DNA from: an uncultured Planctomycetales bacterium
Lineage (GTDB): Bacteria; Omnitrophota; Gorgyraeia; Zapsychrales; Fredricksoniimonadaceae
NCBI GenBank assembly: GCA_964483785.1
Contig: CAZACW010000003.1
Span: 20,559-84,558, forward strand
Reading direction: 5' to 3'
DNA: 64,000 bases
The notes beneath the pieces are model-generated. The model was given only the letters and a program-made list of their open reading frames with translations. It was not told the origin of the DNA and searched no databases. A program made the translations under genes and the position numbers. Shown in pieces: positions 6,001 through 35,162 of the stretch; the first letter of the stretch is position 1, and every line of letters begins with the position of its first letter.

Positions 6001-9000
6001 TTCCAGGTGGAGTTTCATATCATAGGCAGGAACAATGATATGTTCTTCATCAACGCTGTATTTTAATAAACCATTGCGGTACACCTTTAATACGGGTTTT
6101 CCAGTTGTTGGGCTTGGGGTGATTTTATGGACATCCGTATCTAAAGGATAGATAATCGTCGTAAATGGTCCTGTGGTCATCTGTAAATCTGCATAACCTT
6201 GCAATTGTGCATTGGCTTTTTGTTCATCTGTCCATTGTTCGAACTGAGGATCAAAGACCCCCCTGACCCAGGTCGAATTACGGATGTTTGCGCCTGTGGT
6301 GGGCTCAGGAATGATTCTTCCTGGGACAATGCCCCAGGGCATTTTTCTGACTTGGGAGACGATCCCGGCACCGCCTTCAAATCCAGGGTCCCCGCGGATG
6401 GCATGGCCCATGTTTTCGGCGTTGATTCGACCAATGGCGGCATTGATTTCTCTTTGCTGTAAATAAGCCAGCGACCTGGTCAAATGCAGATAAACAGTGG
6501 TCCCGTCCGCCTTGCTTTCAATGGTGGCCTCTGTATTTCCGCTTGGCCTGATATAACGCCCATTTTGGGCTTGGATGATCCTTCGGTAATGGTCGACCTC
6601 TTTGTCGCCGATATGGATGTCCACGCGTGTCATTTCATCCGTGACCACCTTGGCCGGCAAGGGGATAATGGACGGCGGCTTGAGGGTAGGCCTTCCGATC
6701 CTGAAAATATTGATCTGATGTTCTGACAAAGATTTTTGCAGAAGAGGCGCTGTGGCCCTTGTGCCTTCTTGAGTGTTATACCCAAAACCCGTTGGAATGT
6801 TCGAATGTGCGGCTTGAGGCAAATTACCGTCATTGGCATCGGCAACGATTCTTAACGTTTTCAAATAACCGTCGCGGATCTTGGAGGCTTTTTCAACGAT
6901 TTCCGGATGTTGGTGGGTGTAAGCGTAGTTGATGATTTCATTGAGGACTTGCACGGCTTCGGAGGTGACCTCAAACATGACGGCCTTTCCGAAACCGTGG
7001 GCACGGGCATCGGCATCAGCCAAACTCAATCCCCTGATCTCAAAACGGCGGCCGTTAGCGATATAATAATCATTGATCCCGAATTCTGCATCCACCCTTA
7101 ACCACCAGGCCATGACATCCTCGATGGTCATTTTATTGGATTGCATGAACAGTTCCATGCCCTTGCTTAAGAAGGTACGCGTATTAGCGTCAGAGGAGAG
7201 ATAGCTGTTGATGCCGGGTTTTTGCTGGCCGCCGGCCTTATACAATCCTTTTTGGGGATCGTAACGAGTATCTAAGGCTTCTGACATTTGACGGTACTGT
7301 TCGTCCAATTGACTTCCGATGCTTCCATTGAAAAGCCGGTTGAATCCGCTTTGCTGCTGTTGAAGCCCTGGGAGCATGATGTGCCTATATTCCCCCATCG
7401 CCCCCACGGTCAAGGCCAGTGGCTCGGTGCCGTTTTCATTTTTCCAATTATTGCCAAGCCATACGGCCAGGGCATTGATGATATCGTCATTGCGGGTGTA
7501 GGTGTTGTCGCCTTTTAAATAAAGGGCATTTCTTAAATTCAGCAAGGACATGAGGATTGAGGCATTGGGGCCTGGCCCGGGCGCGCCATCGCCTTGGGCG
7601 CGGCGGAAATCATACACATCGTAATATTCCGCGAAGCCTTGAAATCCCGTTTTTTGGGCATTAAAGATGGTGCGGATGAAAGCCTCCAGGGGCTGGATTC
7701 GGTTCCAATCATTGGCATACACCGCGAATGTCAGCCCCAGGGATTGATCGAACATATAGCCGCGGCGGTTGGATTGGCCGGCATGGATATAATCCATGCT
7801 TTGTAAAGCGCCGCTGGCTGTCCTTTGATGAAACGGATCCCCTCCAAGGGCGGCTTGGTAGATTTCAACGCCCCCCTGCTGCATCACGCTTGTAATCTTA
7901 TCATAAGTCTTCAAGTCCCTCTCCACCTGTTCGGCGTTCTCTTCAACGCCGTTGATGGTCGGAAAAAACAGCCTGTAGCTTTCCCTGCCCTTGGCATCAC
8001 GCTCTACGATGGCAAAAACCGGACGGTTGTTTTCCGTCATACCGATCACAAAACCTTTCATCATCTGGGCATGGGCCTCGGCCTTGGTATAGGTATGCAC
8101 CTTGCCGCTGAACCACCCATTATCGAAAGCATACCCGCTGATGCCGGAACCCCGGACATTGGCCTTGTTGATCGTGGTGATTTCCTCGAGCTGGGTCCTT
8201 AATTTAGTGTCATAGAGGCCCCAAAAATTAACGGATATAATTGGACCGTCGACATGGGGAAATGGCGCCCGCAGTGGATTGCCGCTGCCGGTTTCCTGTT
8301 CTATTTTGTTGGCCAATTGGTAAAAATTGATTTCTATGCCTGGTAACAAGGAACGGAAAACAACCGGCGCGTTGGGGCCTGCGATGTCTCTTAAGGCAAC
8401 AGCATCTTGCGGGCCGTGGTTCAAGGCCCAGGCCGCTGCGTAATTCACATTAAATGCGCCGCTTAAGGGATTAAACGGTATATTCCTGGCAGCCCTGCTC
8501 AAGGGGCTGTCTTTTAAGGTGGTGGTGGCGGCGTTAAGTACCCTTAAAGCATCGCCCATTTGGCGGGCGATTTTGTCATAGCCATATTTGCCTTCGATAT
8601 AATGTTGTAATTGTGTCATCTGTTCCTGGCCCAATTCTCCATTAATCATGCGGCGGGCTTGCTGGCGGAAAATATCCTTTTCAGGATCAGGCATCTGGTC
8701 CCAATTGGCCGTAGAACCGGATTGATGATAAACATATTGCGCGACAAAATCCATAAATTGGGTTTCGGTCGGCATGGTCATGAGGTCAGGACGGTTAAAA
8801 ATGTCCCAGCCGAAATCGAGGATGCTGCCTACCGGTACCTTCATGTTAGGCACAAAGGAAAGGCCGAGATTTACCAAAAAAACGGCCCGGTTGAAACGCT
8901 GTTTATTTTGTAAATAGACTTGGTAACGTTGATTTTGTTTGTTTTCAACTTCCGCCAAGAAACGGTCCGCGAAGGCCTCAGACCGTAATTGAACAAGATA

Positions 9001-11889
9001 ATTTCGGCCTAAAATGATTTTATGCGTGTTGTTGGGCTCATCTACGAATACAAAGGTCATGGTTTCTGAATCTGTGGTCGGTACGTATTTCAATTTATGC
9101 CATTGACCGTTGATCTGGACGACCCTTAATACACCTTCTTTCGGGTCTTCTGCATTTCTCCACTGGGTCCGGCTGATGAATCGTATTGGTTTGTAAGAGG
9201 GGCCTTGATGCGCGCTTTCGGCATTTTCGACCTCTACACCCAAAAGAAGATCATTGCCTTTGGGCAGTTCGGCATTCGGATAAAATTTATGCGCCAGGGT
9301 CCTGGCCTGGGTGCCGTCCAGTTCTGCCAAGATTGAACGAAAACCAATGACGTTTTCCCGGGTGATCCTTTGGTTTCTGGCCACATCCAGCATGGTCTGG
9401 GCCATGGTCTCATTGGTCATCATCAGCCCTTCCCTGACCTGGCCATTGATTTCGCCCTGGTACCAAACTACAAACGGGTTCATGTTGAAGTCGAAATCCT
9501 CCGCTTCGATGACGGACAAGCGTTGAAATAGCTTTGGGTCCTTGATATGCGCCCATTGCAAGGGGTCGGTAATACGTATCTTGGGTACATAGATGGCGAT
9601 CTGCAGATTATTTTTGATGGCATCCAGGAAAATTTTGGGATCGTTAAACCTGACCAGAGGAGAAAATAAGGCTTTTTCATTCAAATTGGCCAGAATGGCC
9701 ACTGGCCCGCCTTTTTTAAAAAATAATTCGCGTTGAATATTGTCCCTATTCTCTTGGGCTTGGACACTCAGAAGTCTCTGTGGTTCGCTGACTAACTGCG
9801 GCCTGACATTGGAACGAAAATGATTTTCAATAAGGTTCGCTGGAACCATGGTCATGGGAGGTGTGGCCATGGCCTCAAATCGTTGCATCTCAGATTGAGG
9901 AAATGACGGAAAACTGTTTTCATCCATCTGTGTTCTTGTAGTTGTGGGGAGAAACGGCAAAGGAACAGCGGAAGGCTGTACCGAAGCGGGAACCACCCTT
10001 GCAGGAATTGTTGCTGGAGCTGTCCCGATGGCCGCCGCGGGCATATGGAAATTTGCCGTTTCATTGGGATGGACGATCGTATTGTCAGGTGTGATGGTCC
10101 TGGTACCTTGAGGCCCGGTGACAGTCACCCGGCCTTCCTGGATCAGACGGTTGATCGTCATGCGTTGGGATTTGGCTAGGGTATTGTTATAGGCTTGGAT
10201 TTCTGCGGAGCCCATGAAGGTCGTATACAATGATCCCTGGATGCCGGCATTGATCACATGTTCCGGCGGCGGCGCACTGCCGCCGGCCGCTGCAGGTCCA
10301 TGGGCAGGCAGGACCGCGGCCGGCGCTGGAAGCTCTTCGGAACGCACTCCCCCGGCTGCTGCTGTGCGGACAAGGTCCAAATTAAGGACGATTTTATGCG
10401 GCGCTTGATTGGGCAATGACCGCAAATGATAATTGGGCACATCGGTGACAATATCACCGTCAATGCTCAATACGCCTTGGCGGGCCAGCACATCAATGGC
10501 TTTTTTCCAAACATTCAGGTCCTGGCCGGTCTCTTTATACAGCGTGCTGTTGATCAGTCCATACACGCTCCCTGCCCTGCCTTCGGCGTTGATGGCATGC
10601 AGGTCGGAATGATTCTCGGCGTATTGCTGGACAGCGGCAGCCGGCGTATTTAAAAACGGGTTTTCCGCGGCAGATGCCGTGTACATCCCGGCCAAACTGA
10701 CAGGAATGCTCAACAAGGCGCCAAATGCCAAGGCCTTTTTAGCCAGCTGTGCCGAATCCGGACCCTTGACGATCACCATGGCCGCGTTTTGCCAGGACAC
10801 ACCGCCTGAGAAATATTTTCTCGCCACGGTCTCATTGCTCGGCGTCACTTCTTCCTTGATGTAGTTGTACACGCCTTTTTTGTAAGACACCAGATACTGC
10901 CGGAAGATTTCCTCATCCACGTTTTTGTCCGTGACTTCAATGCCGTTGATTTTGCGGCGGTTGACATATCCTTTGGCCATGAGGCTTTCCTTTAATTTGT
11001 TTTTGTACCAAAGGGCCAGGACCAGCGAATTGTAGACCTGCCTTAAATTGGCGAAATTCTCCCCTGTGTTGACTTCTTTTTCCAGGATGGGCAGAATGAC
11101 CTGGCGGATAAGTTGATTGCTTAATTGATGGGCGTCCGGGGTTGGGTGTTTGGCATCAAGGTTTATGTTCTGATCACTGCTCACTGAGCGCTGATCAAGC
11201 GCATGATGCTTATGCATGGACAGATAATCTTCTTCCAACATCACCTTTAATTTGCTTTTGATGATCACGGCTGTATTGGCAGCGGCATTTTCATACACCA
11301 CGGCCTTCTCCGGGACGATCCACACCTTATTGAAGGTGTTCACCGGAATATCGGTGCTGCCCAATTTTTCATAGGCCTGCTGATAGATGGCGCGCCAGAA
11401 GGCACGGCCTACCTTGCCGTCCGGATACATCACAGAAGCCGTAACTTGTTTTAAGAGATAATCCTGGGCCAAGAGTTCCTTGCCCATTTCCGTGATCCCG
11501 AATTCCTTAGGGACGATATGCTCTTTTTCATAGGGGGATAAATTCACCCACATGTCTTTTTGGGGGATGGTCAAAGAGGCGAGAAAATATTTGATCAATC
11601 TTTCCGCTTCATGCTTGAGAAAGACTTTTTTCATCAGGGAGTCATCATCAAATTTAAGTGTGCTGTCCCCTTGCGAAAGCACGAATTCGAATTTGAAGGG
11701 ATTGTTTTTGTAAATTTTAAGGCCGCGGATGAGAGGCGGTGAAAAGCGCGGGGTCAGTGCGACCATTTGACCGGGCGCAGGCAGAAAAGGCACATTGGCC
11801 AAAACAGGTTCAGAGACCAGGGTATTGACCAGGAAGGTGGTAAGAACAGTCCATAAAATAGGTCTATTTATATACTTGTTTTTCAACAT
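1..11889 (-). CDS. Giant secreted protein, 5' end of gene present (ATG at 11889). The ORF runs off the window start, at least 3963 codons. N-terminal signal peptide MLKNKYINRPILWTVLTTFLVNTLVSEPVLA. Hydrophobic TM-like stretch near the window edge. No domain recognised by eye.
   Basis: Hand translation of the minus frame (codon first base at plus coordinates divisible by 3) gave no stop in about 25 sampled 60-nt lines. These were 1-480, 2041-2100, 5821-5880, 7381-7500 and 10681-11889. A TAA lies immediately upstream of the ATG at 11889-11887. The six-frame track lists no minus ORF in this frame across 1-11889, which fits a single open frame lacking an in-window stop. All listed minus ORFs here share the other frame. 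Confidence 0.6.
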   Translation of the reverse strand, partial: MLKNKYINRPILWTVLTTFLVNTLVSEPVLANVPFLPAPGQMVALTPRFSPPLIRGLKIYKNNPFKFEFVLSQGDSTLKFDDDSLMKKVFLKHEAERLIKYFLASLTIPQKDMWVNLSPYEKEHIVPKEFGITEMGKELLAQDYLLKQVTASVMYPDGKVGRAFWRAIYQQAYEKLGSTDIPVNTFNKVWIVPEKAVVYENAAANTAVIIKSKLKVMLEEDYLSMHKHHALDQRSVSSDQNINLDAKHPTPDAHQLSNQLIRQVILPILEKEVNTGENFANLRQVYNSLVLALWYKNKLKESLMAKGYVNRRKINGIEVTDKNVDEEIFRQYLVSYKKGVYNYIKEEVTPSNETVARKYFSGGVSWQNAAMVIVKGPDSAQLAKKALAFGALLSIPVSLAGMYTASAAENPFLNTPAAAVQQYAENHSDLHAINAEGRAGSVYGLINSTLYKETGQDLNVWKKAIDVLARQGVLSIDGDIVTDVPNYHLRSLPNQAPHKIVLNLDLVRTAAAGGVRSEELPAPAAVLPAHGPAAAGGSAPPPEHVINAGIQGSLYTTFMGSAEIQAYNNTLAKSQRMTINRLIQEGRVTVTGPQGTRTITPDNTIVHPNETANFHMPAAAIGTAPATIPARVVPASVQPSAVPLPFLPTTTRTQMDENSFPSFPQSEMQRFEAMATPPMTMVPANLIENHFRSNVRPQLVSEPQRLLSVQAQENRDNIQRELFFKKGGPVAILANLNEKALFSPLVRFNDPKIFLDAIKNNLQIAIYVPKIRITDPLQWAHIKDPKLFQRLSVIEAEDFDFNMNPFVVWYQGEINGQVREGLMMTNETMAQTMLDVARNQRITRENVIGFRSILAELDGTQARTLAHKFYPNAELPKGNDLLLGVEVENAESAHQGPSYKPIRFISRTQWRNAEDPKEGVLRVVQINGQWHKLKYVPTTDSETMTFVFVDEPNNTHKIILGRNYLVQLRSEAFADRFLAEVENKQNQRYQVYLQNKQRFNRAVFLVNLGLSFVPNMKVPVGSILDFGWDIFNRPDLMTMPTETQFMDFVAQYVYHQSGSTANWDQMPDPEKDIFRQQARRMINGELGQEQMTQLQHYIEGKYGYDKIARQMGDALRVLNAATTTLKDSPLSRAARNIPFNPLSGAFNVNYAAAWALNHGPQDAVALRDIAGPNAPVVFRSLLPGIEINFYQLANKIEQETGSGNPLRAPFPHVDGPIISVNFWGLYDTKLRTQLEEITTINKANVRGSGISGYAFDNGWFSGKVHTYTKAEAHAQMMKGFVIGMTENNRPVFAIVERDAKGRESYRLFFPTINGVEENAEQVERDLKTYDKITSVMQQGGVEIYQAALGGDPFHQRTASGALQSMDYIHAGQSNRRGYMFDQSLGLTFAVYANDWNRIQPLEAFIRTIFNAQKTGFQGFAEYYDVYDFRRAQGDGAPGPGPNASILMSLLNLRNALYLKGDNTYTRNDDIINALAVWLGNNWKNENGTEPLALTVGAMGEYRHIMLPGLQQQQSGFNRLFNGSIGSQLDEQYRQMSEALDTRYDPQKGLYKAGGQQKPGINSYLSSDANTRTFLSKGMELFMQSNKMTIEDVMAWWLRVDAEFGINDYYIANGRRFEIRGLSLADADARAHGFGKAVMFEVTSEAVQVLNEIINYAYTHQHPEIVEKASKIRDGYLKTLRIVADANDGNLPQAAHSNIPTGFGYNTQEGTRATAPLLQKSLSEHQINIFRIGRPTLKPPSIIPLPAKVVTDEMTRVDIHIGDKEVDHYRRIIQAQNGRYIRPSGNTEATIESKADGTTVYLHLTRSLAYLQQREINAAIGRINAENMGHAIRGDPGFEGGAGIVSQVRKMPWGIVPGRIIPEPTTGANIRNSTWVRGVFDPQFEQWTDEQKANAQLQGYADLQMTTGPFTTIIYPLDTDVHKITPSPTTGKPVLKVYRNGLLKYSVDEEHIIVPAYDMKLHLEVGTYIYPNPYRSTHVQRLAGVTEYMAQANAVAELAKTPQGKAQAEAVTITLYANFERKAGDHHITKKVVYIGRTNNERRLQIFTDHEYPDSEVTLNEITEYQRNAYGLPPHSEVFFNGDDMTGPLDVEQIAQRLLRPVPGALRTSNTSPIMGQDRNLQRSGFTLPVESLNLSTNITHSLVINASGVVQSNRDADQIGGNTVTQNTQLDYDRSKFSGVVPLASETKSGSGTTLASDRLFNYDQTTGRSWIYHLDEHGQGSFRLFDPRWTQPILVAGKDSLDRWVVTRTDMDRDETHQSSTTTIGQQKGGVTTTSTYDRNHMRWELNVTKWAEQVGQGLALASSTVYQSPFGRTLDVLTASDDGINQRYLPRHDRDGIETGATMDLFNPATHQWVHQFDFSHYRFARGQRIRDVMDLGHQKPSTQMDDMATGLLLAESAPQGVYKSPLGISFEGLVTSRYAYNGPLALVPQTVVNNRGETRRFSGLNSSLLTWQIQGADHKIFYEDTDPKHRGRVSATRAFFDSSSQNVPMAQALWEHRTQNIFRQPTADNIFDLDLIPDSENTNYQNGKPVNRIPVLGSYDVSRLQGTFKIKLDEALSNGSTTVVNQEVIADNQQVAKTIQLAYRYGLERIQWKIIGHKKVVFNWRNEPGSYSVAHGIADTVDVFEINDQGEQVRPLYSAAAKDYNPNDGTLTMLITHYFGNNQDKTWTEMITMSTKGDIQSSIANLVNQQGEQDRKFAYYIYAPEHETYLGLTSENDRRIDLLAGAPPQDASKQDYWYFFADSKDGQMYDDIEVLVTDALGHQVTFTSKMDKSNYFENLLASGQIHELPFIYPYNFTVISTPDQKSPTRESSAVVNVRSLKGRNPFVMPVQWMADAGIDPSKINSVVVHYKGNKDVPVGVSALKTTQQQNEIQITKRQDETVLLGELKRYIADARIQFNSNDTVTADLGWNFGEAVANLQNMKARQGVWAKTREFLQQMKSTHEERDRVQFEILGDGQALMSRYDRDEKLGQWTPLTTIYTFDDLNEKNQPTANVYSGYPGFTVAEEISIVENGYSRMYLLSNGVGIPSIQLFPFAHAGNRPSQTTWQGDAPIIVPNNYGGGAAKAFRELTFNDLYMTFARSYFPKFNPNADHEAIDNVVLDRMRNNRETKPHPVGAFVYNTPFWKLHDLPDHPIPATADLIQIAKAWRNSHTGLIPLTHGTQEQSLDVAKQGDLLAALILSGDQEGIQIAQDILLYQTDKRPFSFWDSTGEGKVPVVNFLNINSGAPQRTTPDLNNPTYSTPKADSQAAITNAVYQLWKANGNPYARTMAMAMARTLVETFYSSDDEIGAFAEEKFVPQVKTLGLNFLGRPNNYLTRTNSKIFLLLNAMRQDTTLDADFRQFLGPRIESLQKFFDTYVMGRVKDESIVPYGFYRRQNGAIEFGEIPGSSSDTWFYFIEAAKAMGRIDDAKGIQLLDMMDRPFEVKTDGQVGLDIAIGPRQRVIAVDSTVNGLRTARLLGYQQAEDGFRRALAAYPRTPENMFPELIGINASAVDPRQGLDSGDMRRFYPRTDGPSPSWAPSLTAGADWLMAQQGGASVYNPAPKDRAQLSFAAPAAHSLFWVAMAYLPLASILLAPFINLLTGAVTKNLLQVRKFYLIGKVKASIPDFDMKDISAAYDLIAQTIEMTDQYGNPIPNPHQDRVHVLRKDIQGPRSLDILSANGFTALIALLKNIQAKDPTVINDDQIKAIINKWSQIFYEEFEKQATYWKTRGSILKSLRRIIGIRFRNNEEDTYTNPRYHPMTLINLYMWDEVKRIRQAEADKQGVKEQVGRSLEILNNEGQFRTWAQTKAKEARHPLLIGAARNLFLVYWIFIAAAFGRAEITHIQSMIHDHLYNNVLFSYIHQFAGSSTWGLLAAGIGLIMMVYMVPETKNPVLSPIAKWTRGLLALGGLGLGASWLMGFIGDYQINFLLPESLSISTGSQVIVHTLMQQVVQNTGLLCAGAAALTASWILDFIQGA

Positions 11890-12098
11890 TTATCCAGTAC
11901 CTTTAAATAAACCTCTTCACTTCTTCATCAAAACTGTTCTCTATATCTAAAGTATATCCCGTTAATAAGGGCTTTGGGCCCCTGAAAGGCCTTTCAAGAG
12001 AAAGCGCTTTCCCGGTTAAACCCCGACGGAGATTAGAGATAATAGAAAAATTTAGATTAAATTTTTAAAAATTAGGGATCGAGGGTTGCTGCGGGAAA

Positions 12099-12512
12099 CT
12101 AAATCGAGGGCGTTTCGGATTTCTGCAGGATCTTCTTGATGAGCTTGAGCGAATTCTCATCGATGCTGGTAAAATAAATCACAAAGCCTTCGCCCGGCAC
12201 CATGCGGGAGATGCGGGCAAGGCCTTGGATCACTTCTGTATCGTTAACGGCACATTGGATGCTGATGCCGATTTCGTCGTTCACGCTCAAATAAAGATTA
12301 TTTTTGATCCTGACAAAGGCGCTGTTTAAGGACAGGTCCTTGATCTGCGCTTTCACGGACAATTGCGACCCGACGCTGACCGTGGCCGGAAATTCCACGT
12401 TGACGCGCGGCTGGCCGCGCTGGTCGCTGTTGCCCAAATAAGCCGTCATAACATTCCTCGATTCATCTAATGATTCAACGGGAGTAATCATCCTGAATCC
12501 GGATGATATCAT
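12099..12512 (-). CDS. PilZ-like domain protein (putative c-di-GMP binding). A more likely start is the internal Met (MTAYLG...) near 12449.
   Basis: 137 aa ORF. It has an RGQPR (RxxxR) motif followed about 25 aa later by a DLSLNS (DxSxxG-like) motif. It is co-directional with the hem operon. Confidence 0.35.
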   Translation of the reverse strand: MISSGFRMITPVESLDESRNVMTAYLGNSDQRGQPRVNVEFPATVSVGSQLSVKAQIKDLSLNSAFVRIKNNLYLSVNDEIGISIQCAVNDTEVIQGLARISRMVPGEGFVIYFTSIDENSLKLIKKILQKSETPSI

Positions 12513-12813
12513 CTTCTCCCAGGTATTTCCCGCAGGCCACTTCGATTAAAACCAAATGCTCAGGGCCTGTATTGCCTATGCGGTGGACGGCGCCTAAAGG
12601 CACATCCACCACGACACCGGGGTTGACAGGGATTTCCTTGCCGTTGACAATGGCCATGCCTTGCCCTGCCACCACGACCCATTTTTCCGACCGGTGCTGG
12701 TGCTTTTGCAGGCTTAACCTCGCTTGAGGGTTGACCTCAATGCGTTTCACCCAAACGCCGGGTTCCTGATGGAACTTGTGATATTGGCCCCACGGCCTTT
12801 TGGTGATTTCCAC
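12475..12813 (-). CDS. Cupin domain protein (mannose-6-phosphate isomerase type II / RmlC-like cupin)
   Basis: 112 aa. The core QKHQHRSEKWVVVAGQGMAIVNGKEIPVNPGVVVDVPLGAVHRIGNTG is typical of the cupin two-His motif 1 and motif 2. Confidence 0.55.
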   Translation of the reverse strand: MEITKRPWGQYHKFHQEPGVWVKRIEVNPQARLSLQKHQHRSEKWVVVAGQGMAIVNGKEIPVNPGVVVDVPLGAVHRIGNTGPEHLVLIEVACGKYLGEDDIIRIQDDYSR

Positions 12814-12818
12814 GACAG

Positions 12819-14081
12819 TTATTTTAGGAAAAAACCCGCGATTTGACCAGATAAATAGTTTAATTCTTTCGCGCTGTGGGCCATGGAAACAAAAAATGTT
12901 TCCAATTCAGCCGGCGGCCAGTAAATCCCCTTCCCTAATAAATAGTGGAAAAGGCGGGCGTATTGCTTTTGGTCCGAGGCTTTCAGGGCCTGCGCGTAAT
13001 TATTCACGGGCCCGGATGAAAAACGGAGGCAGACCATGCTGTGATGATAGGCCAGATGGGCCTGGATGCCGTTGGCCTGCAAAAGGGCATTGGTTTGGAT
13101 GACAAAATTTCTGCTTAGATCATTGAGTTTTTTATAGGCCGGCGGCGTCAATTGATGCAAGACCGCCAGGCCTGCCTGCATCACCACGGGATTGCCTGAA
13201 AAGGTCCCGGCTTGGTAAACGCCGCCTAAAGGCGCCAAATGCCGCATGATGTCCTTGCGTCCGCCATAGGCGCCGACCGGAAAACCGCCGCCGATGATTT
13301 TGCCCAGGCAGGTCAAGTCCGGAATAATGCTAAGCTCCGATTGGGCGCAGCCTAAATTGGACCTGAACCCGCTCATCACTTCATCAAAAATCAGGATGAT
13401 CCCATATTTTTTGGTCAAGGCCCGCAGGCCTTGCAGGAATTCCTTGTGAGGGTTGACCAGGCCCATATTGCCCGGTACAGGTTCAATGATCACGCAGGCG
13501 ATGTCGCGGTGATGGCGTTCAATGGTTTTGGATAAAGTTTGAATATCATTAAACGGCAGGCTTAAAGTGTCCTGCATATGCGCTTGCGGAATGCCCTGGC
13601 TCGAGGAAGCCGGCAAAAAGGCCAGGCCGGAGCCGGCCTTACTTAATAAATCATCGCTGTGCCCATGATAACAGCCGTCGAATTTGATGATTTTGGCGCG
13701 TTTGGTAAAACCGCGGGCTAAGCGCACAGCGCTCATCGTGGCTTCCGTCCCGGAATTGACAAAACGCACCCTGTCGATCGACGGGACATGACGGCAAATG
13801 AAGCGGGCGATTTCAATTTCAGCTTTGGTGGTGGTGCCGAAGCTGGTGCCGTTCTTGAGGGCTTTTTGAATGGCTTTGCGGACTTCACGGTTGTCGTGGC
13901 CCAAGATCAAGGCGCCCCAGGAAAGGCAATAATCAGCATAGCTTCGGCCTTGGATATCATAAAGCCGAAAGCCCCTGCCCCTGGCCATCAGCAGAGGCTT
14001 GCCGCCCACGGCCAAAAAAGCGCGGACCGGGCTGTTGACCCCTCCCACCAATACTTTTTGAGCTGAGTTTAAGAGATCCAT
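12819..14081 (-). CDS. hemL: Glutamate-1-semialdehyde 2,1-aminomutase
   Basis: 420 aa. N-terminal GGVNSPVRAF signature, PLP-dependent class III aminotransferase fold motifs, and a 13-nt overlap with hemB. Confidence 0.95.
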   Translation of the reverse strand: MDLLNSAQKVLVGGVNSPVRAFLAVGGKPLLMARGRGFRLYDIQGRSYADYCLSWGALILGHDNREVRKAIQKALKNGTSFGTTTKAEIEIARFICRHVPSIDRVRFVNSGTEATMSAVRLARGFTKRAKIIKFDGCYHGHSDDLLSKAGSGLAFLPASSSQGIPQAHMQDTLSLPFNDIQTLSKTIERHHRDIACVIIEPVPGNMGLVNPHKEFLQGLRALTKKYGIILIFDEVMSGFRSNLGCAQSELSIIPDLTCLGKIIGGGFPVGAYGGRKDIMRHLAPLGGVYQAGTFSGNPVVMQAGLAVLHQLTPPAYKKLNDLSRNFVIQTNALLQANGIQAHLAYHHSMVCLRFSSGPVNNYAQALKASDQKQYARLFHYLLGKGIYWPPAELETFFVSMAHSAKELNYLSGQIAGFFLK

Positions 14082-15031
14082 TTCAGGGCAGATTTGGCGT
14101 GATAAGAAATGATGATGTCTGCGCCGGCGCGCTTCATCGCGGTCAGGGTTTCCAGGACAATTGATTTTTCATCGATCCATCCGTTTTGCGCGGCGGCCTT
14201 GACCATGCTGTACTCACCGCTGACATTGTAGCCTACGATGGGCACGGTCAATTCCCGGCGAAGTTGGGCGATGATGTCCAAATAAGCCAAGGCAGGTTTC
14301 ACCATGATCATGTCAGCGCCCTCGTTAACGTCTTTTTTGGCTTCTTTCAAGGCCTCGCGGCTGTTGGCAGGGTCCATTTGATAGGATTTGCGGTCGCCTG
14401 ATTTGGGTGTCGAATGGGCGGCATCGCGAAACGGGCCGTAATAAGCCGAAGCATATTTGACTGCATAGGATAAAATGCCCACGTCCTGAAATCGGGCCTG
14501 GTTTAAGGCCTGGCGGATGGCGCTAACGCGAAAATCCATCATGTCCGAAGGAGCGACCCAATCCGCGCCGGCCTGGGCCTGGGCCACGGCCATTTTGCCA
14601 AGCACAGGCAGGGTCTTGTCGTTGTCGATTTTTTCGTTAACGATCAGGCCGCAATGCCCATGGCTCATGTACGCGCACAGGCACACGTCTGTGACGATCA
14701 AAAAATCCGGAAAATGTTTTTTTAAGGCCTTGATGGCCGACAAAACAGGGTTGCCGGCGGCATAGGCGTATTGGCCGGTATTATCTTTGCGGGCCGGCAC
14801 GCCAAAGAGCATGCATCCTTTGCCGCCTTCCCGGATATAATCATCAATATCTTTAAGCAGATAATCCAGGGAAAAGCGGAATATGCCGGGCATGCTGGGG
14901 ATGGCTTCCTTTTTGTTTTTGCCCGCGACGACAAAATAAGGCTGGAGAAGATCATAGGCATTTAAGCGGGTCTCGCGGACAAATTCCCTGATTGCGGGCG
15001 TGGCCCTTAATCTACGATAACGATACGGCAT
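14069..15031 (-). CDS. hemB: Porphobilinogen synthase (delta-aminolevulinic acid dehydratase)
   Basis: 320 aa. Starts MPYRYRRLRATPAIREFVRETRL and carries an active-site lysine region typical of HemB. Overlaps the upstream fusion gene by 20 nt. Confidence 0.95.
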   Translation of the reverse strand: MPYRYRRLRATPAIREFVRETRLNAYDLLQPYFVVAGKNKKEAIPSMPGIFRFSLDYLLKDIDDYIREGGKGCMLFGVPARKDNTGQYAYAAGNPVLSAIKALKKHFPDFLIVTDVCLCAYMSHGHCGLIVNEKIDNDKTLPVLGKMAVAQAQAGADWVAPSDMMDFRVSAIRQALNQARFQDVGILSYAVKYASAYYGPFRDAAHSTPKSGDRKSYQMDPANSREALKEAKKDVNEGADMIMVKPALAYLDIIAQLRRELTVPIVGYNVSGEYSMVKAAAQNGWIDEKSIVLETLTAMKRAGADIIISYHAKSALKWIS

Positions 15032-17084
15032 CTTGATATCCTGAGGCTTGCAAGGTTTGTAAGGTCACCGGCCCCTTGGCCAGGATTTTCCAGGAATTCG
15101 GTATTATACCATAATCCGTCAGGAAATTCCGGACGGTCGAGGGGCTGGTAAAAATGACTCCGTCTATCTTGATCTCGGGCAAAGCGCGCTTGGCCGGCTT
15201 GGTATTTTCATAAATGGTGATTTCCGTGACCTCGGCCCCCTGGGCTTGTAAGGCTTCTTTCAAAAAAGGATTGGGCAGATTTGAGCGCGGCCATAAAATG
15301 GATTTTCCTTTAAGTGTCCATCGCAAAGACATGGCCTTGAACAGGCCTTGCGCGGTTTCTTCCGGAGAGACCAGATCAGCTTCAATGCCGGATTTTTCAA
15401 GCGCCATTTGGGTGCGGCGGCCGATCACTGCAAATTTTTTAGTTTTGAAATCCGTGTTTGGATCAAGGGCCCGTATGGCTTTGATAAAATATTCGCCCGC
15501 ACTCCAGCTGGTGCAGACAATGATCTCGGCCTGCTTAAAACTTTCTTGCAGTGCTTTTGTCTGGGCCTGATTCATGGCCGCAGGCGTGATTTCGATCATG
15601 GGCCAGGACACGATATTCCCCCAGGGTTGATAAGCCTGGGGATGTGTCCCGCAGTGAAGCAGGGTCGGCTTCATTGCAGGTTTATAAAAGTCAATGGTCC
15701 GGCCGGCAAGAATCAGCGCCGGCGGTTTAAGGCCAAGGGCTTTGGCTTCAATGCTCTCAAGGGTGCCTTTGACAATCTGCTCCTTGGCCTTGGTGCCGTT
15801 GGCGATGATCATCATCGGCGTATCCTTGCTCCATCCTGCCTTGCGCAAGGATTGGACGATGGTATTTAATTTGGTCAAGCCCATCAAAAAGACCAGGGTA
15901 TCTGCCTGGGGAAGATGGATGTCCTTGGGATGCTTTTGGTCTTCCTGTTCTTCATGGCCGCTGATAAAGGCCACCGAGGAAGAGATGCCTCTGGCTGTCA
16001 AGGGAATGCCTAAGGCCGAGGGAATGCCGGTGGCAGAACTGACACCGGGAATAATTTCAACTTCAATATGATAGGAGCGCAGATATTGGATCTCATCCGC
16101 TCCCCGGCCGAAAATCAGAGGGTCCCCGCCTTTTAAGCGCACCACATTTTTGCCGGCCATGGCCTTCATTTTAAGCATCCGCGAAAGTTCTTCCTGGGGC
16201 AGCGCCTGCTCACCCTTGCGTTTACCCGCGTAGATGGTTTCAGCTTGAGGCGCGAATTTGAGAAGTTCGGGATCAACCAGATAATCATAGAAAACACAAT
16301 CAGCCGTTTTTAGCGCGTCCACCCCTTTAAGGGTGATCAGGCGGCTGTCCCCTGGCCCGGCACCGACCAGGCTGACCTTGCCGTAATGCCGCCGCACATC
16401 AATGTCCTGAAATAAAACTTCCAAATGCAAATCTTTCCTGCGGCCCACCACAGCCAGCTGGCCTTGCAAAGGCATGGCTTCCCAAGGCAAAAAATCCTTG
16501 ATCCGATGCTCGAGTTTAAGGCGTTTGAGCGCGCAGGCAGCCATCACCAGGCCGTCCAGCTTGCCTTCATCTAATAAGAGCAGGCGTTCCTGGATGGTGC
16601 CGCGGATATGGACAATATCCGCATCGGGCCGCATATGCAGGACCTGATGCTGACGCAAGACGCTGCTGGTGCCGATTTTGGCCCCTGGTTTTAAATCCTG
16701 CCAGGCCATGCGGCTGACCCAGGCGTCCCTGCCATCCATGCCCTTGGTCAAGGCAAAAATTTTCAAGCCCTCCGGCATATTTTGCGGCAGGTCCTTGGCG
16801 CTGTGCACGGCCAGATCAGCCTTATTGCCAAGCAGGGCCTGGTCAATGGCGTCGGTAAAAAAATCATCGCGGCTTTCCGTCAAGGGCGTATGCTTGTCTT
16901 TGTCGCCGCTGGTTTCCATGGTGATCAGCTGAAAATCCAAGGCCCTGCCCTGGATTTTAAGCTCCTGGACAATTTCTTCGACCTGGGCCAAGGCCAAGGG
17001 GCTGAAACGGGAAGCGATTCTAATAGGTTGATTCATAGAGGATATTATACAACGTGAGTTCGACATATTGAGAAAGGCATGCAA
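15012..17084 (-). CDS. hemC/cobA/hemD: Trifunctional fusion of porphobilinogen deaminase (domains 1-2 only), uroporphyrinogen-III C-methyltransferase (CobA/SUMT) and uroporphyrinogen-III synthase (HemD). The likely true start is the Met of MNQPIRIASR near 17036.
   Basis: N-terminus IRIASRFSPLALAQ ... GTSSVLR ... LQGQLAVVGRRKD is HemC-like. Middle VSLVGAGPGD ... VRLKGGDPLIFGRGADE ... IPGVSSA is SUMT. C-terminus KKFAVIGRRT ... GVIFTSPSTV is HemD. The HemC part is about 210 aa and stops where the E. coli domain 3 (Cys242 cofactor loop) would begin. Confidence 0.85.
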   Translation of the reverse strand: MHAFLNMSNSRCIISSMNQPIRIASRFSPLALAQVEEIVQELKIQGRALDFQLITMETSGDKDKHTPLTESRDDFFTDAIDQALLGNKADLAVHSAKDLPQNMPEGLKIFALTKGMDGRDAWVSRMAWQDLKPGAKIGTSSVLRQHQVLHMRPDADIVHIRGTIQERLLLLDEGKLDGLVMAACALKRLKLEHRIKDFLPWEAMPLQGQLAVVGRRKDLHLEVLFQDIDVRRHYGKVSLVGAGPGDSRLITLKGVDALKTADCVFYDYLVDPELLKFAPQAETIYAGKRKGEQALPQEELSRMLKMKAMAGKNVVRLKGGDPLIFGRGADEIQYLRSYHIEVEIIPGVSSATGIPSALGIPLTARGISSSVAFISGHEEQEDQKHPKDIHLPQADTLVFLMGLTKLNTIVQSLRKAGWSKDTPMMIIANGTKAKEQIVKGTLESIEAKALGLKPPALILAGRTIDFYKPAMKPTLLHCGTHPQAYQPWGNIVSWPMIEITPAAMNQAQTKALQESFKQAEIIVCTSWSAGEYFIKAIRALDPNTDFKTKKFAVIGRRTQMALEKSGIEADLVSPEETAQGLFKAMSLRWTLKGKSILWPRSNLPNPFLKEALQAQGAEVTEITIYENTKPAKRALPEIKIDGVIFTSPSTVRNFLTDYGIIPNSWKILAKGPVTLQTLQASGYQDAVSLS

Positions 17085-17135
17085 GGATATGTTTTTGATA
17101 AAGCGATGTGCTTTTCCCCCCAGGCGCGCAGAGAC

Positions 17136-17163
17136 CCATCACAACCCCCGGGGGTTGTGATGG
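17136..17163. repeat. 28-bp perfect GC-rich palindrome CCATCACAACCCCCGGGGGTTGTGATGG, copy 1 of 3
   Basis: Read directly. Intergenic, about 50-100 nt upstream of the hemC-fusion start on the minus strand. Near-identical copies lie at 18599-18622 and 47311-47337. Confidence 0.8.
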
Positions 17164-17372
17164 TATCCATGCGTACCGTCGGGTGGCCGAGGGAGGGGCA
17201 TCGCCCGTTGAGCGAGGCTTTTGCGAGCGAAACGGGGATACCCGAGGCCAGGACCCGACGGTCTGCTAAACATGTCCTTGCGTGCCTATAGATAGCGTTA
17301 TGTCGAACTGACGTTATACAAGAATTGGGAGGACACAATACTGAATTCAATCGTCGGGCCTTTAGGAGCCCC

Positions 17373-18566
17373 CTAAGGCGCTACATACTTATCGACCACA
17401 TAGCTTGCGAAAGGCAGGGAACAGGTCAGGGCCGGCGAGACAGCATTGAGCACATGGACGCTTTGTCCATCGCCCTCCACCACGAAATCCTGGACCAAAT
17501 TTAAAGTTGTGCGGTTAAGCAATTGGGCCCGGATCCCGGGCTTGGTCCAGTCCGTGAAGCCTTCAGGGTCAATGCGCTTGACCATGGATTGGGCCAGGCC
17601 GATGAAATATTTTTTGTCGTATTTGCGCATTTCTTCATGGGCCAGGGCGCGGAAATTAAAGGCATTGCTTGCGTACAGCTTGGTTTCGTAGAAAAGCACT
17701 TCGGACATTTCTTTAAAATCGAATCCGTGCCGGATATCGTAATTTTCGCGCCAAAACGCCGGGATCGCGGTGGGGCCGATTTTAATGTCGCCATTGACGG
17801 TCTTGGTAAAATGCACGCCTAAAAAAGGGTTTTTTAAATTTGGGACCGGATAAACATGGACGGAAACATCGTCCTTATTTTTAGTGTATTTCAGATAAAG
17901 GCCTTTGAAAGGGACCATGGTGTAACGTTTTCCAAATCCGAAATCCTGGGCCACCTTGTCCGCGTAAAGCCCGGCGCAATTGATGATCTTATCGCCCAAG
18001 AAATCGCCTTGCCGGGTATGGATGAGATTACGGGTATGTCCCAAATATTTGGTATTGAATGAGAATTCCACATCCTTTTGCATTAAATCCTCTTTGAGGC
18101 TGGCGCAGACCTGCACAGGGTCAATGCTGGCCGTATCCGGGGAATACAAGGCCTGCTTAAAGGTTTTGACATTAGGGTCTATGGCTGACACCTCTTCTTC
18201 TGTGATCAACCGCACATTGGAACCATTGGCCTTGCCCCGGCGCAAAAGCTCCTGCAGTTGGGACAATTCTTCCTCATTTTGGGCGACCACTAATTTTCCG
18301 CACGCATTCAGGCTCAAGCCCTTGGATTGCACATAGGCCCGCAGGGCCTTGTTGCCTTCCACGGTGAATCTGGCTTTCAGGGAATCAGCCGTATAATAAA
18401 AACCGGCGTGCAGAACACCGCTGTTGCGGCCTGAGGCATGCATGGCCTGGGCCTCTTCTTTGTCCAGAATGAGGATTTTGGCCATGGGCTTGCGCGCCTT
18501 AAGGGCACGCGCCATGGCCAGTCCTATGATGCCGGAACCAATGATGATAAAATCATAATTTTTCAT
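17373..18566 (-). CDS. FAD-dependent oxidoreductase, L-2-hydroxyglutarate oxidase (LhgO/YgaF)-like
   Basis: N-terminal MKNYDFIIIGSGIIGLAMARAL dinucleotide-binding motif. RNSGVLHAGFYY and overall collinearity with the LhgO family as recalled. The ORF track starts at 18605 inside the palindrome. Start at 18566 is more plausible. Confidence 0.65.
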   Translation of the reverse strand: MKNYDFIIIGSGIIGLAMARALKARKPMAKILILDKEEAQAMHASGRNSGVLHAGFYYTADSLKARFTVEGNKALRAYVQSKGLSLNACGKLVVAQNEEELSQLQELLRRGKANGSNVRLITEEEVSAIDPNVKTFKQALYSPDTASIDPVQVCASLKEDLMQKDVEFSFNTKYLGHTRNLIHTRQGDFLGDKIINCAGLYADKVAQDFGFGKRYTMVPFKGLYLKYTKNKDDVSVHVYPVPNLKNPFLGVHFTKTVNGDIKIGPTAIPAFWRENYDIRHGFDFKEMSEVLFYETKLYASNAFNFRALAHEEMRKYDKKYFIGLAQSMVKRIDPEGFTDWTKPGIRAQLLNRTTLNLVQDFVVEGDGQSVHVLNAVSPALTCSLPFASYVVDKYVAP

Positions 18567-18598
18567 ATGTGAGGTTAATTTTGCTAAAATAACGTCGA

Positions 18599-18622
18599 CC
18601 ATCACAACCCCGGGGGTTGTGG
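18599..18622. repeat. Palindrome copy 2 (CCATCACAACCCCGGGGGTTGTGG, right arm degenerate)
   Basis: Read directly. It lies in the divergent region between the LhgO-like gene (minus) and the plus-strand small-protein gene. Confidence 0.75.
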
Positions 18623-18668
18623 AGGTTAAAATGAGAAAACAAATTATATCATTAAGAGGGAGGATTCG

Positions 18669-18944
18669 ATGAATAAATTAACTTTTGGCTTAAGTTCGAT
18701 CATCGTGGCCCTGAGTTTTTGTTTGGGGACTGCCATCAACAGCCGGGCCCAGGACAAAAGCTTCTCAGGCGTTATACCCTTTGTGACCAGCAATGACCGG
18801 GTCGGGTTTTTAGACCAAAACAACGGCAAGGTCTATGTCTATGACAATAATCTGGGATCGTGCGTGTTCACCGGCCAGATCCAAACCCTGGGGGCACCGA
18901 TCCAAGTGATATCTTCACCTGCGGTAAACACCGTCAATCCATGA
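18669..18944 (+). CDS. Small secreted protein (signal peptide, cleavage around SRA-QD), hypothetical
   Basis: 91 aa with a strong SD (GAGGGAGG) 6 nt upstream. The stop TGA overlaps the ATG of the next gene (ATGA). One of only two plus-strand genes in the window. Confidence 0.5.
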   Translation: MNKLTFGLSSIIVALSFCLGTAINSRAQDKSFSGVIPFVTSNDRVGFLDQNNGKVYVYDNNLGSCVFTGQIQTLGAPIQVISSPAVNTVNP

Positions 18945-19168
18945 GCCGCAAACATCCCTTTACCATGCGGGTCAAGCCGGGCCGTTACGTTTGGTGCAGC
19001 TGCGTTGAATCCAAGCGACTGCCTTTTTGCGACGGGTCCCATGTCCGGACCGGCAGTACGCCGATGTTTGTCGAGATCACGCAAGAGCAGGAAGTTTCCT
19101 GGTGCGGCTGTAAGATGAGCGCCAAAAAACCGTTTTGCGACGGGACCCACGAACGCGCGGGATCATAG
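18941..19168 (+). CDS. CDGSH iron-sulfur domain protein (two CDGSH-type motifs)
   Basis: From ATG 18941 the sequence is MSRKHPF ... CSCVESKRLPFCDGSHV ... CGCKMSAKKPFCDGTHE. That gives two C-x-C-x(n)-CDG(S/T)H motifs, about 75 aa. It is translationally coupled to the upstream gene. Confidence 0.65.
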   Translation: MSRKHPFTMRVKPGRYVWCSCVESKRLPFCDGSHVRTGSTPMFVEITQEQEVSWCGCKMSAKKPFCDGTHERAGS

Positions 19169-20134
19169 CAGGCTGTGGGCGGTTGATGAGGCAATGTCTT
19201 TAAGGGCTTTAAGCAATTGCCGGCCGTGGGTGTTCAGGCGGCTGTGGGTGCTGCGGGTAGAAAGATTCATCACTCCTAAAATTTCTTTGTTGTTTCTGAT
19301 GATGGGCACAATCAGCGCACATTTTAATTCCGGCTTAATCATCAAATGACGGATGCGGTTATTTTGACCTTGGGCCTGGACCATCATCGGCTTTTTGCTT
19401 TGGGCCGCCAAACCTGCGATACCCTCCCCTAATTTGATGCCCACGCCCTGGGCCTTGCCCAGATTCATGCCCTTGACCATTTGAACATTCAGCTCATCCG
19501 TGCGTTTGTTAAACACCATCAGCGACCCGCATTCAGCCTGGGTCAAGGCCATGGACAATTCCAATAAATTTTTGAACACGGATAAGGACGCCGGGGATGG
19601 TTTGAAGGCAGTGACAGGCGCATCGGTTTCCTTGGACATGATCCTTAAGGCATACTGGGACAATTCCGCAAAAAGATCGAGCATGGATTTCAAGCCGTTA
19701 AAGGTCACGGCCCTGATCTCATTTAAAGAAGCCAGAAATTCCGCGGGATCAGCCCCAAGATCTTGGGCCATGGCCTTGTATTGGGCATGTTCCAAGGGTT
19801 TGTTGATGATCACCGGGCCTATAATCAAATAGGCCAAATGGTCCAGGCCGGCCGCGGCCATGGGAACAGCGAAATAATGCAGGCCAAGCTGGTCCGCGGC
19901 CTTTAAATAAGGGCCCTCTTTTTGGAATTGGGAAAGAAAACCGGATCCTCCAAGGCCCTGAAAAGCGCCCCAGCGCAAGGCCGCCTGTATGCCGTGGCCG
20001 CTGTTTTGCGGTGCTAAGATCGGCCTGCCTTCAGAGTCCGTCATCATGATATGGATGCGCAGCACATCCATAAAATTCACAAGGATCTGGCCTAATTGGG
20101 GACTGGCCTGGATTTTATCAATGATCATTTTCAT
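19163..20134 (-). CDS. GAF-domain protein (C-terminal GAF, N-terminal uncharacterised sensor-like domain). Last gene of the HK-RR-GAF operon.
   Basis: 323 aa. The C-terminal LGEGIAGLAAQSKKPMMV ... ILGVMNLS is GAF-like. Its start overlaps the end of the response-regulator gene by 17 nt. Confidence 0.55.
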   Translation of the reverse strand: MKMIIDKIQASPQLGQILVNFMDVLRIHIMMTDSEGRPILAPQNSGHGIQAALRWGAFQGLGGSGFLSQFQKEGPYLKAADQLGLHYFAVPMAAAGLDHLAYLIIGPVIINKPLEHAQYKAMAQDLGADPAEFLASLNEIRAVTFNGLKSMLDLFAELSQYALRIMSKETDAPVTAFKPSPASLSVFKNLLELSMALTQAECGSLMVFNKRTDELNVQMVKGMNLGKAQGVGIKLGEGIAGLAAQSKKPMMVQAQGQNNRIRHLMIKPELKCALIVPIIRNNKEILGVMNLSTRSTHSRLNTHGRQLLKALKDIASSTAHSLL

Positions 20135-27275: not shown

Positions 27276-27809
27276 TTACGATTCCATTAAACTCATGCGC
27301 GCCACCACAATGCGGCCGCGCAAGGACCCCGACGCATCGGAGTATTTTTCCAGGTTGAGCGCATTGATAAAGTAAAAGTTGGGCGGGTCCTGCAAGGCGC
27401 GCAAAAACTGCACGATGTCCAGCCATTGCCCGTCGATTTCCAGCTCCACCGGGAAAAAACTGGCCTCTTTCTGGATGAAGGACCTTTGCGGCTGGATATT
27501 GGCGATATGGATATTGCTTTCCCTGGCCGCGGCCTCGATTTTGGAGATGATCGCAGGGGCCTGGGTCTCTTCTGACCCGGCCAGGCCGATGGCATCCGCC
27601 AGATTATGGTACCTGGTTTCGATCATGCCCCCCTGGCCCAAGACCTGGCGGCTCTTTAAAAGTCTGGCCTTGGTGACCCGCAGTTGATCGTCGATGTCCG
27701 CGGCCCCTTCCTTAACGGGCCTGATCACCCAGAGGTAAACAAGAAAAACAGCCGAAAGCCCCAGGGTGATGCTCAGGATGATGGTTTCGCGTTGGCTAAG
27801 CTTTTTCAT
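27276..27809 (-). CDS. gspM: T2SS protein M-like (GspM/PilO fold)
   Basis: 177 aa with a short N-terminal cytoplasmic segment, one TM and a periplasmic domain. Last gene of the gsp-ordered operon. Confidence 0.5.
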   Translation of the reverse strand: MKKLSQRETIILSITLGLSAVFLVYLWVIRPVKEGAADIDDQLRVTKARLLKSRQVLGQGGMIETRYHNLADAIGLAGSEETQAPAIISKIEAAARESNIHIANIQPQRSFIQKEASFFPVELEIDGQWLDIVQFLRALQDPPNFYFINALNLEKYSDASGSLRGRIVVARMSLMES

Positions 27810-29235: not shown

Positions 29236-29237
29236 CT

Positions 29238-30254: not shown

Positions 30255-30972
30255 TGTACAGGCCCTCCACCGGCGGCAAGTAAAAATCACGTTTAAACAC
30301 CGGGCCTCCTGCGCGGCTGGACGGATCAGACAGCACAAAGGCGCAGGACACGGCCAAAGGGAGCCCTTTTTCGTCCCAGCTTTCGGCAAAATTCAGCTCC
30401 TGCGCCCCGCCTGTATGCAGGTTTTTGGTAAAAGGCGCAAAGCGGCAGTTGAAGCTTCCTTTTTTTAAACCAGCGGCGATGATTTGGGTGGACGCATCAT
30501 GGTTCGTTTCATTAAGCCAGTCCGCCAAACTGCTTTCCTGCCTCAGCAAAAACTCATCCGGCGATGACCCTGAATTTGCGCTGCCGCCGTGATTGACCAC
30601 GCGGCCGATCATGGCATAGGCCAGGCCTCCTGGCGGCGGAAGGCCGGCATAATAACGGACATGTTTAAGGCCCGATGGGGTCTGGGTCATGAAGGAGAAT
30701 TCCTGCGCCTGGCCTTCAAAGACCGCGGCATCGGGATAGGAACCGGACAGATCGAGGCTGACCGCATTGTCCAGGTCGCGGGTCATGGCTTGATCCGCCA
30801 GCAGGATTTCCATCCAATGGTCATGGCTGTGCCTCAAGCGTTCATCGAGTTTCATGGAAGACCAAAAGAGATTGTAAACGCTGACGCCGATGATGGCGGC
30901 GATGGCCAGCCCCAGCAGAACTTCGACGAGGGTAAAGGCCCGGGGTGAATGTTGGAGTCGTTTAATTCTCAT
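30244..30972 (-). CDS. gspJ: Minor pseudopilin GspJ-like
   Basis: N-terminus RAFTLVEVLLGLAIAAII is a prepilin cleavage/methylation motif. 242 aa. Confidence 0.5.
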   Translation of the reverse strand: MRIKRLQHSPRAFTLVEVLLGLAIAAIIGVSVYNLFWSSMKLDERLRHSHDHWMEILLADQAMTRDLDNAVSLDLSGSYPDAAVFEGQAQEFSFMTQTPSGLKHVRYYAGLPPPGGLAYAMIGRVVNHGGSANSGSSPDEFLLRQESSLADWLNETNHDASTQIIAAGLKKGSFNCRFAPFTKNLHTGGAQELNFAESWDEKGLPLAVSCAFVLSDPSSRAGGPVFKRDFYLPPVEGLYNEQ

Positions 30973-32226: not shown

Positions 32227-32238
32227 ACAGCTCTCCCG

Positions 32239-33453: not shown

Positions 33454-33459
33454 AGGGCT

Positions 33460-35148: not shown

Positions 35149-35162
35149 AGGTTCACCGGTCT

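Follow-up and report, generated by a model that had tools for sequence, protein, structure and literature searches.

Results

A HemC-SUMT-HemD fusion that lacks HemC domain 3

The window, as we call the whole stretch of DNA analysed here (64,000 nt; contig CAZACW010000003.1, positions 20,559 to 84,558), comes from an uncultured bacterium deposited under the Planctomycetales and placed in the Omnitrophota by GTDB. On its reverse strand lies a gene (15012..17036; 674 aa plus a stop codon) whose product joins domains 1 and 2 of hydroxymethylbilane synthase (HemC) to a uroporphyrinogen-III methyltransferase (SUMT or CobA) and a uroporphyrinogen-III synthase (UroS or HemD). Pfam placed the three parts, in the residue numbering of a mechanically called open reading frame (ORF), as follows, all on the reverse strand: Porphobil_deam, that is HemC domains 1 and 2, at residues 21-220 (16425..17024; E 1e-54, profile positions 1-204 of 207), with the catalytic Asp at 16791-16793 and the catalytic Lys at 16794-16796; TP_methylase at residues 236-445 (15750..16379; E 3.5e-50, profile 1-211 of 212); and HEM4 at residues 490-685 (15030..15617; E 2e-35). 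The HEM4 match (PF02602) reached 122.3 bits against a gathering threshold of 27.5 and covered profile positions 13-217 of 231. SUMT equivalog models were passed (TIGR01469, 248.4 bits against 185; NF004790, 263 against 198) and the domain matched NirE and CysG in the PDB, down to E 5e-52. All NCBIfam equivalog models for HemD stayed under their cutoffs (best 99.7 against 275), which is usual in this poorly conserved family.

An initial annotation made from the letters of this DNA had described a HemC-like part of about 210 aa that ends where domain 3 would begin and runs on into a complete SUMT and then HemD, and our profile searches and alignments agree with that description. The HemC part is some 210-220 aa long. 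The hemC equivalog model TIGR00212 was passed (194.3 bits against 164) with an alignment confined to profile positions 1-218 of 293, and HemC chains in the PDB align over residues 4-201 in Escherichia coli and 5-219 in Bacillus megaterium. In E. coli HemC, domain 1 comprises residues 1-99 and 200-217, domain 2 residues 105-193 and domain 3 residues 222-313 (PMC3945110); the fused SUMT begins at the hinge, where domain 3 would start. Porphobil_deamC (PF03900) had no Pfam match in the fusion protein, and a domain 3 hidden Markov model (HMM) built from 29 sequences found nothing in it, with an E. coli control at 1.6e-38. The dipyrromethane cofactor of the E. coli enzyme is held by a thioether to C242 on a domain 3 loop (PMC3945110). 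This cysteine, invariant in 29 of 29 canonical HemCs, has no equivalent in the window protein. Pfam's name for domains 1 and 2, 'dipyrromethane cofactor binding domain', needs qualifying: the cleft in which the cofactor lies is present, and it is domain 3 with the covalent attachment point that is missing. A HemC without domain 3, fused to CobA and HemD, is thus confirmed.

The AlphaFold model (mean predicted local distance difference test score, pLDDT, 83) gave high pLDDT in all three domains. Using Foldseek, HemC crystal structures (5h6o, 2ypn and 1pda) superposed on it over 215-225 columns at a root-mean-square deviation of 1.8-3.2 Å, which corresponds to HemC domains 1 and 2, whose periplasmic-binding-protein-like fold makes up the catalytic cleft; NirE, CysG and SUMT structures were also matched. 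The model holds no confident inter-domain geometry (predicted template modelling score, pTM, 0.55), and a placement of SUMT or HemD in the site of domain 3 is not readable from it.

The mechanical ORF (15012-17084, reverse strand) is a 690-codon frame with TTG at 17084 as its first codon. The true start is most likely the ATG at 17036, as judged from three features: P0001, the public gene call in an independent assembly (674 aa, 100 % identical to the window protein); the N-termini of homologs, which coincide with Met17 of the ORF ('MNQPIRIASR'); and the placement of a TATAAT box (17044..17049, reverse strand) that ends 7 nt 5' of this ATG. The box is a possible promoter and no Shine-Dalgarno sequence was seen upstream of the ATG, a combination that suggests a leaderless operon transcript.

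Distribution of the short HemC

With the 220-aa HemC module as query, HMMER was run exhaustively against 1.84 billion cluster representatives and returned 317 matches at E<=1e-30. The counts given below for the clade rest on the best 147 of these 317, which are representatives of 50 %-identity clusters, aligned with E. coli HemC and with their architectures mapped by custom probes and Pfam. Domain 3 was absent from 146 of the 147, the sole exception being P0256, a gammaproteobacterial-type HemC with a real domain 3. The commonest architecture was that of the window protein, with HemC domains 1 and 2 (C12) followed by SUMT and HemD (58 representatives); C12-HemD accounted for 38, C12-SUMT, partly truncated, for 13 and stand-alone C12 of 211-239 aa for about 25, and HemA-C12 and SirC-HemA-C12 fusions were also present. 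The partners of the module are tetrapyrrole enzymes almost throughout. Two oddities depart from this, namely P0188 (841 aa), in which C12 is fused to a NIR_SIR sulfite/nitrite-reductase-like region and TusA, and P0191 (352 aa), with a low-molecular-weight-phosphatase-like tail; each could be a real fusion or an artefact of gene calling.

A divergent domain 3 was sought in the tails or spacers of P0249, P0160, P0174, P0231, P0255, P0186 and P0191, which proved to hold HemD starts, a phosphatase-like domain or unmatched linkers instead. P0256 was used as a probe for three-domain HemC in Omnitrophota and was uninformative, its relatives being of gammaproteobacterial type.

The same three Pfam domains without PF03900 were found in more than 120 clusters (90 % identity) of about 650-700 aa that are 53-70 % identical to the query, and their named members are metagenome-assembled genomes (MAGs) of Candidatus Omnitrophica or Omnitrophota. 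The triple fusion is the standard form in this phylum, and near-complete Omnitrophota assemblies that have it include GCA_964572155.1 (contig CAZNDZ010000001.1, 1.34 Mb) and GCA_044225175.1 (contig JBGAJA010000001.1, 820 kb). With a stand-alone short protein as the query, 120 proteins carrying PF01379 only were retrieved; those with names belong to Parachlamydia sp. AcF125, Waddliaceae, Parachlamydiaceae, Chlamydiales and one Verrucomicrobia MAG, and carry the NCBI annotation hydroxymethylbilane synthase. By these matches, HemC without domain 3 forms a large clade, to which the chlamydial HemC belongs. The initial annotation had called the triple fusion unusual, which holds against the textbook enzyme but not against sequence space, given the Omnitrophota clusters and the place of chlamydial HemC in the same clade. 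The best HemC-specific NCBIfam model was NF002202, in which the window module scored 201.8 bits against a cutoff of 251 (profile 16-234 of 241); environmental stand-alone short HemCs likewise fell under this cutoff, at 178-245 bits.

Conservation of the catalytic cleft

Sixteen cleft residues (R11, S13, Q19, F62, S81, K83, D84, S128, S129, R132, R149, R155, A170, R176, Q198 and G199 in E. coli numbering) are each kept in at least 138 of the 147 representatives, and most of them in at least 144. The K83/D84 pair and the arginine set, apart from R131, are conserved in 145-147 of 147. In E. coli these residues either have a catalytic role or are in contact with the cofactor or the elongating chain (PMC3945110). 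Of the E. coli arginine cluster (R11, R131, R132, R149, R155 and R176), all are found in the window module save R131. This near-invariance indicates purifying selection on catalysis and, together with the exclusive association of the module with tetrapyrrole genes in the slot of hemC, argues for an active synthase rather than a relic or a mere binding domain.

A divergent cofactor site

At the position of E. coli Arg131 the window protein has Leu127 (16656..16658, reverse strand), and at that of Ala172 it has Cys168 in the cleft, in the motif 'AACALKRL' (16533..16535, reverse strand). Among canonical HemCs, Arg131 is invariant (29/29) and Ala172 is present in 28 of 29. The E. coli substitution R131L abolishes cofactor binding and leaves the enzyme inactive, and simulations of the E. 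coli enzyme count A172 among the residues in contact with the chain as it grows (PMC3945110). In a neighbour-joining tree, one contiguous subclade takes in nearly all triple fusions, that of the window among them; in it Cys172 is nearly fixed (with at least one exception, P0108, an Omnitrophota protein with Ala) and position 131 is hypervariable (L, S, A, N, E, Q, T, I, H and others); the other subclade of short HemCs keeps Arg131 and Ala172. The association of Cys172 with a variable position 131 is largely a single phylogenetic event. As position 131 varies here yet is invariant in canonical HemC, where R131L loses the cofactor, we read the canonical cofactor site as no longer under selection in the subclade of the window protein.

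Cys172 is a candidate alternative anchor for the chain, which we put forward as a hypothesis only. Across the 147 representatives no Cys column reaches 60 %. In chlamydial stand-alone proteins Cys is frequent at 75 (91 %) and 218 (75 %) in E. coli numbering, and the triple fusions have neither. Another thiol, Cys247, lies in a SUMT strand ('ADCVFYD') and is invariant in Omnitrophota; it was rejected as an anchor, most fused SUMTs having Val or Ile at this position (Cys in 4 of 76) and NirE having Val.

The hem operon and related loci

The fusion gene stands in a hem operon, as had been initially annotated. The ATG of hemB (ALAD, 320 aa; 14069..15031, reverse strand) overlaps the end of the fusion gene by 20 nt, and hemL (glutamate-1-semialdehyde aminomutase type, Aminotran_3, 420 aa; 12819..14081, reverse strand) overlaps the end of hemB by 13 nt. 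We compared this arrangement with 12 related loci, comprising eight from Omnitrophota, three of chlamydial type and one from Elusimicrobiota. The order fusion-hemB-hemL is kept in eight loci at 54-100 % identity, usually with a cupin gene next. The three chlamydial-type loci read rnc-radA-hemC(short)-hemD, with hemD overlapping hemC, and in one locus hemE, hemF and a gene for a hemY-like oxidase lie no more than 7 kb away. In the Elusimicrobiota locus (L013) the order is cbiX, a hemA-hemC12 fusion, a cobA-hemD fusion, hemB and hemL; the gene order is shared with the window, but the fusion breakpoints differ. We see the Omnitrophota triple fusion as most plausibly the product of in-frame joining of adjacent operon genes, a short hemC and a cobA-hemD. 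None of ahbABCD, sirC, chelatase or cbi genes was found in the flanks of eight related loci, and no tetrapyrrole gene (no ahb, sirC, chelatase, cbi or hemA) lies in the window outside the operon. Heme and cobalamin pathways are patchy across the Omnitrophota (PMC10066038).

Some of the related loci call for comment on their records. Frameshifts interrupt both the triple-fusion gene and hemB in L009 (10001-13013) and most likely stem from assembly errors rather than from pseudogene decay. L006 and L007, which have the order DAO-fusion-hemB with fusions 67-68 % identical, are titled 'uncultured Planctomycetales bacterium' and may be mis-assigned Omnitrophota bins. L012, from the MAG of P0502, is labelled Verrucomicrobia; as its gene order (rnc-radA-hemC-hemD-Rce1-like-SOD-accD) is that of the chlamydial loci L010 and L011, it may be a mis-assigned chlamydial bin.

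Directly 3' of hemL in the window is a gene for a 112-aa cupin (MannoseP_isomer C-terminal/Cupin_2; 12475-12813, reverse strand), which keeps this position in most related loci at 62-78 % identity and lies upstream of the operon in L008. A PilZ protein is encoded beyond the cupin, and an FAD oxidoreductase upstream of the fusion gene. Between the latter and the hem operon, at about 17140-17157 (reverse strand), there is a perfect 18-nt palindrome, ACAACCCCCGGGGGTTGT, with no T-run after it. An Rfam scan of 11500-19500 found no RNA family or riboswitch around the operon at E<=1. The rest of the window holds regulators, exopolysaccharide genes, type II secretion/pilus-like genes, giant proteins with Ig repeats and a giant ORF. 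This last is a stop-free frame at 1-11889 (reverse strand) of at least 3,963 codons that runs past the start of the window; giant ORFs have been described as common in Omnitrophota (PMC10066038). Two Big_7 Ig-repeat proteins (1,110 and 1,391 aa; 37361-47317, reverse strand) adjoin a set of type II secretion/type IV pilus-like genes (27276-36746), and together these may serve in adhesion, in line with the host-attached lifestyle that has been proposed.

Discussion

Our study describes a HemC module that consists of domains 1 and 2 only. We consider it probable, at roughly 0.62, that the module represents a distinct and widespread class of hydroxymethylbilane synthase built from these two domains, set in a three-activity enzyme that leads from porphobilinogen to precorrin-2. 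In the mechanism that we propose, co-transcribed HemB would supply porphobilinogen, and the two-domain module would polymerise four units of it in its intact cleft without the tether of domain 3. As both the domain 3 loop and the cofactor cysteine are missing, a dipyrromethane primer cannot be held in the canonical way; the first pyrrole might be anchored elsewhere (in the subclade of the window protein, perhaps on Cys172), the primer might be non-covalent, or there might be no permanent primer. The unstable bilane would then be handed directly to the HemD partner to give uroporphyrinogen III, which SUMT would methylate twice to precorrin-2. The constant coupling of the short HemC to HemD, by fusion or, in Chlamydiota, by overlap of the genes, suggests that HemD compensates for domain 3 or takes the product directly. 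From precorrin-2 the routes to siroheme, to siroheme-dependent heme and to cobalamin diverge. The initial annotation had taken the CobA domain to point to such products; precorrin-2, siroheme or cobalamin are reasonable candidates, with an indirect fit to the SirC-HemA-HemC fusions and to the cbiX gene beside the Elusimicrobiota operon. A more detailed version, which we advance tentatively and with a good deal of doubt, holds that the synthase is active without a Cys242-bound cofactor, that Cys172 anchors the first pyrrole in the window protein's subclade and so frees Arg131, and that the chlamydial subclade works non-covalently or primer-free with hand-off to HemD. If this were true, the 'universal' cofactor attachment of hydroxymethylbilane synthase would have been re-invented at least once.

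The initial annotation had offered a choice between a domain 3 supplied in trans and a non-catalytic module, a choice that misses what we see as the best-supported option, an active synthase independent of domain 3. A small protein bearing the Cys loop and docking on the two-domain module, in the manner of a split HemC, would be the simplest route to the textbook chemistry, and the cleft retains every cofactor-contacting residue save R131. We nevertheless regard it as very unlikely. HMMs built from two and then from 29 sequences were negative on six-frame translations of the window and the 12 related loci (E. coli control 1.6e-38), precomputed Pfam annotation at eight inspected loci placed no PF03900 gene next to the short hemC, the fusion partners of the module are varied but never a domain 3, and position 131, where E. 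coli has an arginine that holds the cofactor, varies freely in the window protein's subclade. That the module is not a synthase at all, and instead binds porphobilinogen or bilane, serves as a scaffold that passes bilane from a canonical HemC encoded elsewhere to HemD and CobA, or acts as a regulatory sensor, is an unlikely explanation but a less remote one. It would account for the loss of both Cys242 and domain 3, which are thought essential for turnover, and for the presence of an equivalent of the inactivating R131L. A mere binder, however, would not need Asp84, Lys83 and the full arginine set, conserved as they are in nearly every representative, and the module takes the slot of hemC both in the HemA-C12 and SirC-HemA-C12 fusions and in the chlamydial hemC-hemD pair, with no other hemC nearby. 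Omnitrophota genomes are also reduced (PMC10066038), which makes a redundant pseudo-enzyme conserved throughout the phylum improbable.

An artefact, in which a frameshift, a misassembly or a decaying pseudogene removed domain 3 and joined the genes, could point to the frameshifts in the fusion gene and hemB of L009. The probability that we leave to it is negligible, and conservation across independent assemblies already refutes it: an identical protein was called in another assembly, the uninterrupted architecture recurs in the Omnitrophota clusters, the junction sequence is conserved, and the three domains are full-length with high pLDDT. Taken together, this evidence fits best with a domain-3-independent synthase that would feed HemD and CobA, and gives less support to a domain in trans or a non-catalytic module.

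Several points weigh against our preferred reading. The literature searched contained no biochemical evidence for any HemC that lacks domain 3, nor a paper noting or studying the absence of domain 3 or Cys242, and major reviews give only the Cys242-linked cofactor. A canonical hemC or a separate domain 3 gene elsewhere in Omnitrophota genomes is formally possible; a search of genome contigs with the fusion protein gave four loci and says nothing on a second hemC. In Chlamydia genomes the short form is, we assume, the only HemC; that of C. trachomatis we take to be about 241 aa and encoded by its only hemC, with radA-hemC corresponding to CT298-CT299. No thiol is conserved across the whole clade, and a single common anchoring solution is not evident. 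Channelling, finally, is unsupported by the predicted structure at this pTM.

Comparison with known systems places the window protein between several familiar forms. With canonical HemC (E. coli, 313 aa; 1PDA, 2YPN) it shares the fold of domains 1 and 2, the residues D84/K83, R11, R132, R149, R155, R176, Q19, F62, Q198 and G199, and its place in the operon, ahead of hemD and in the company of hemB and hemL; it differs in the lack of domain 3 (222-313) and Cys242, in Leu for Arg131 and Cys for Ala172, and in its fusion to two downstream enzymes. The chlamydial short HemC (NF002202/PRK01066, 241 positions; for example P0437 of Parachlamydia sp. AcF125, 230 aa) is likewise a two-domain protein without PF03900 and always coupled to HemD. 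It falls in the same clade by HMMER ranking, and both lineages belong to the Planctomycetes-Verrucomicrobia-Chlamydiae (PVC) group, whereas the chlamydial form is a free-standing protein beside a hemD gene that overlaps its own, with Arg131 and Ala172 retained and Cys frequent at 75 and 218. CobA-HemD bifunctional fusions have been reported in the hem operons of Desulfovibrio and clostridia. Such a fusion in L013 (468 aa) has exactly the architecture of the C-terminal two-thirds of the window protein, and the operon order of hemC, cobA/hemD, hemB and hemL is shared; the window gene also takes the short hemC into this frame, so that a single chain carries three successive activities. A fusion of hydroxymethylbilane synthase and UroS in Leptospira interrogans, for which both activities were reported (Guegan et al. 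2003, as cited in PMC8698207 and PMC3945110), has, as described there, the HemC-HemD order seen in 38 of the best 147 relatives and differs from the window protein in having no SUMT domain.

The SUMT-HemD fusion type, the Leptospira HemC-HemD fusion and the short chlamydial HemC, catalogued in NCBIfam, are therefore already known. What is new is a triple-fusion subtype, marked by Cys172 and a variable position 131, of this known and apparently uncharacterised short HemC. We treat it as a separate subtype because the canonical domain 3 and cofactor Cys are missing and the cutoff of the chlamydial model is not reached.

In the textbook picture, hydroxymethylbilane synthase has three domains and carries a self-made dipyrromethane cofactor on a cysteine of domain 3. 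A large natural clade that has neither this domain nor this cysteine, yet keeps the cleft and turns up in every hem operon setting, raises the question of how the polypyrrole chain is primed, held and measured, and specialists would be surprised if its members prove active. The clade covers the enzyme of a whole candidate phylum and that of the Chlamydiae, among which are major pathogens. The finding bears on mechanism, on annotation, where these proteins go inconsistently by the names HemC, CobA or HemD, and possibly on a way in which the enzyme of pathogens differs from the human one, and the triple fusion would offer pathway engineering a ready-made module from porphobilinogen to precorrin-2.

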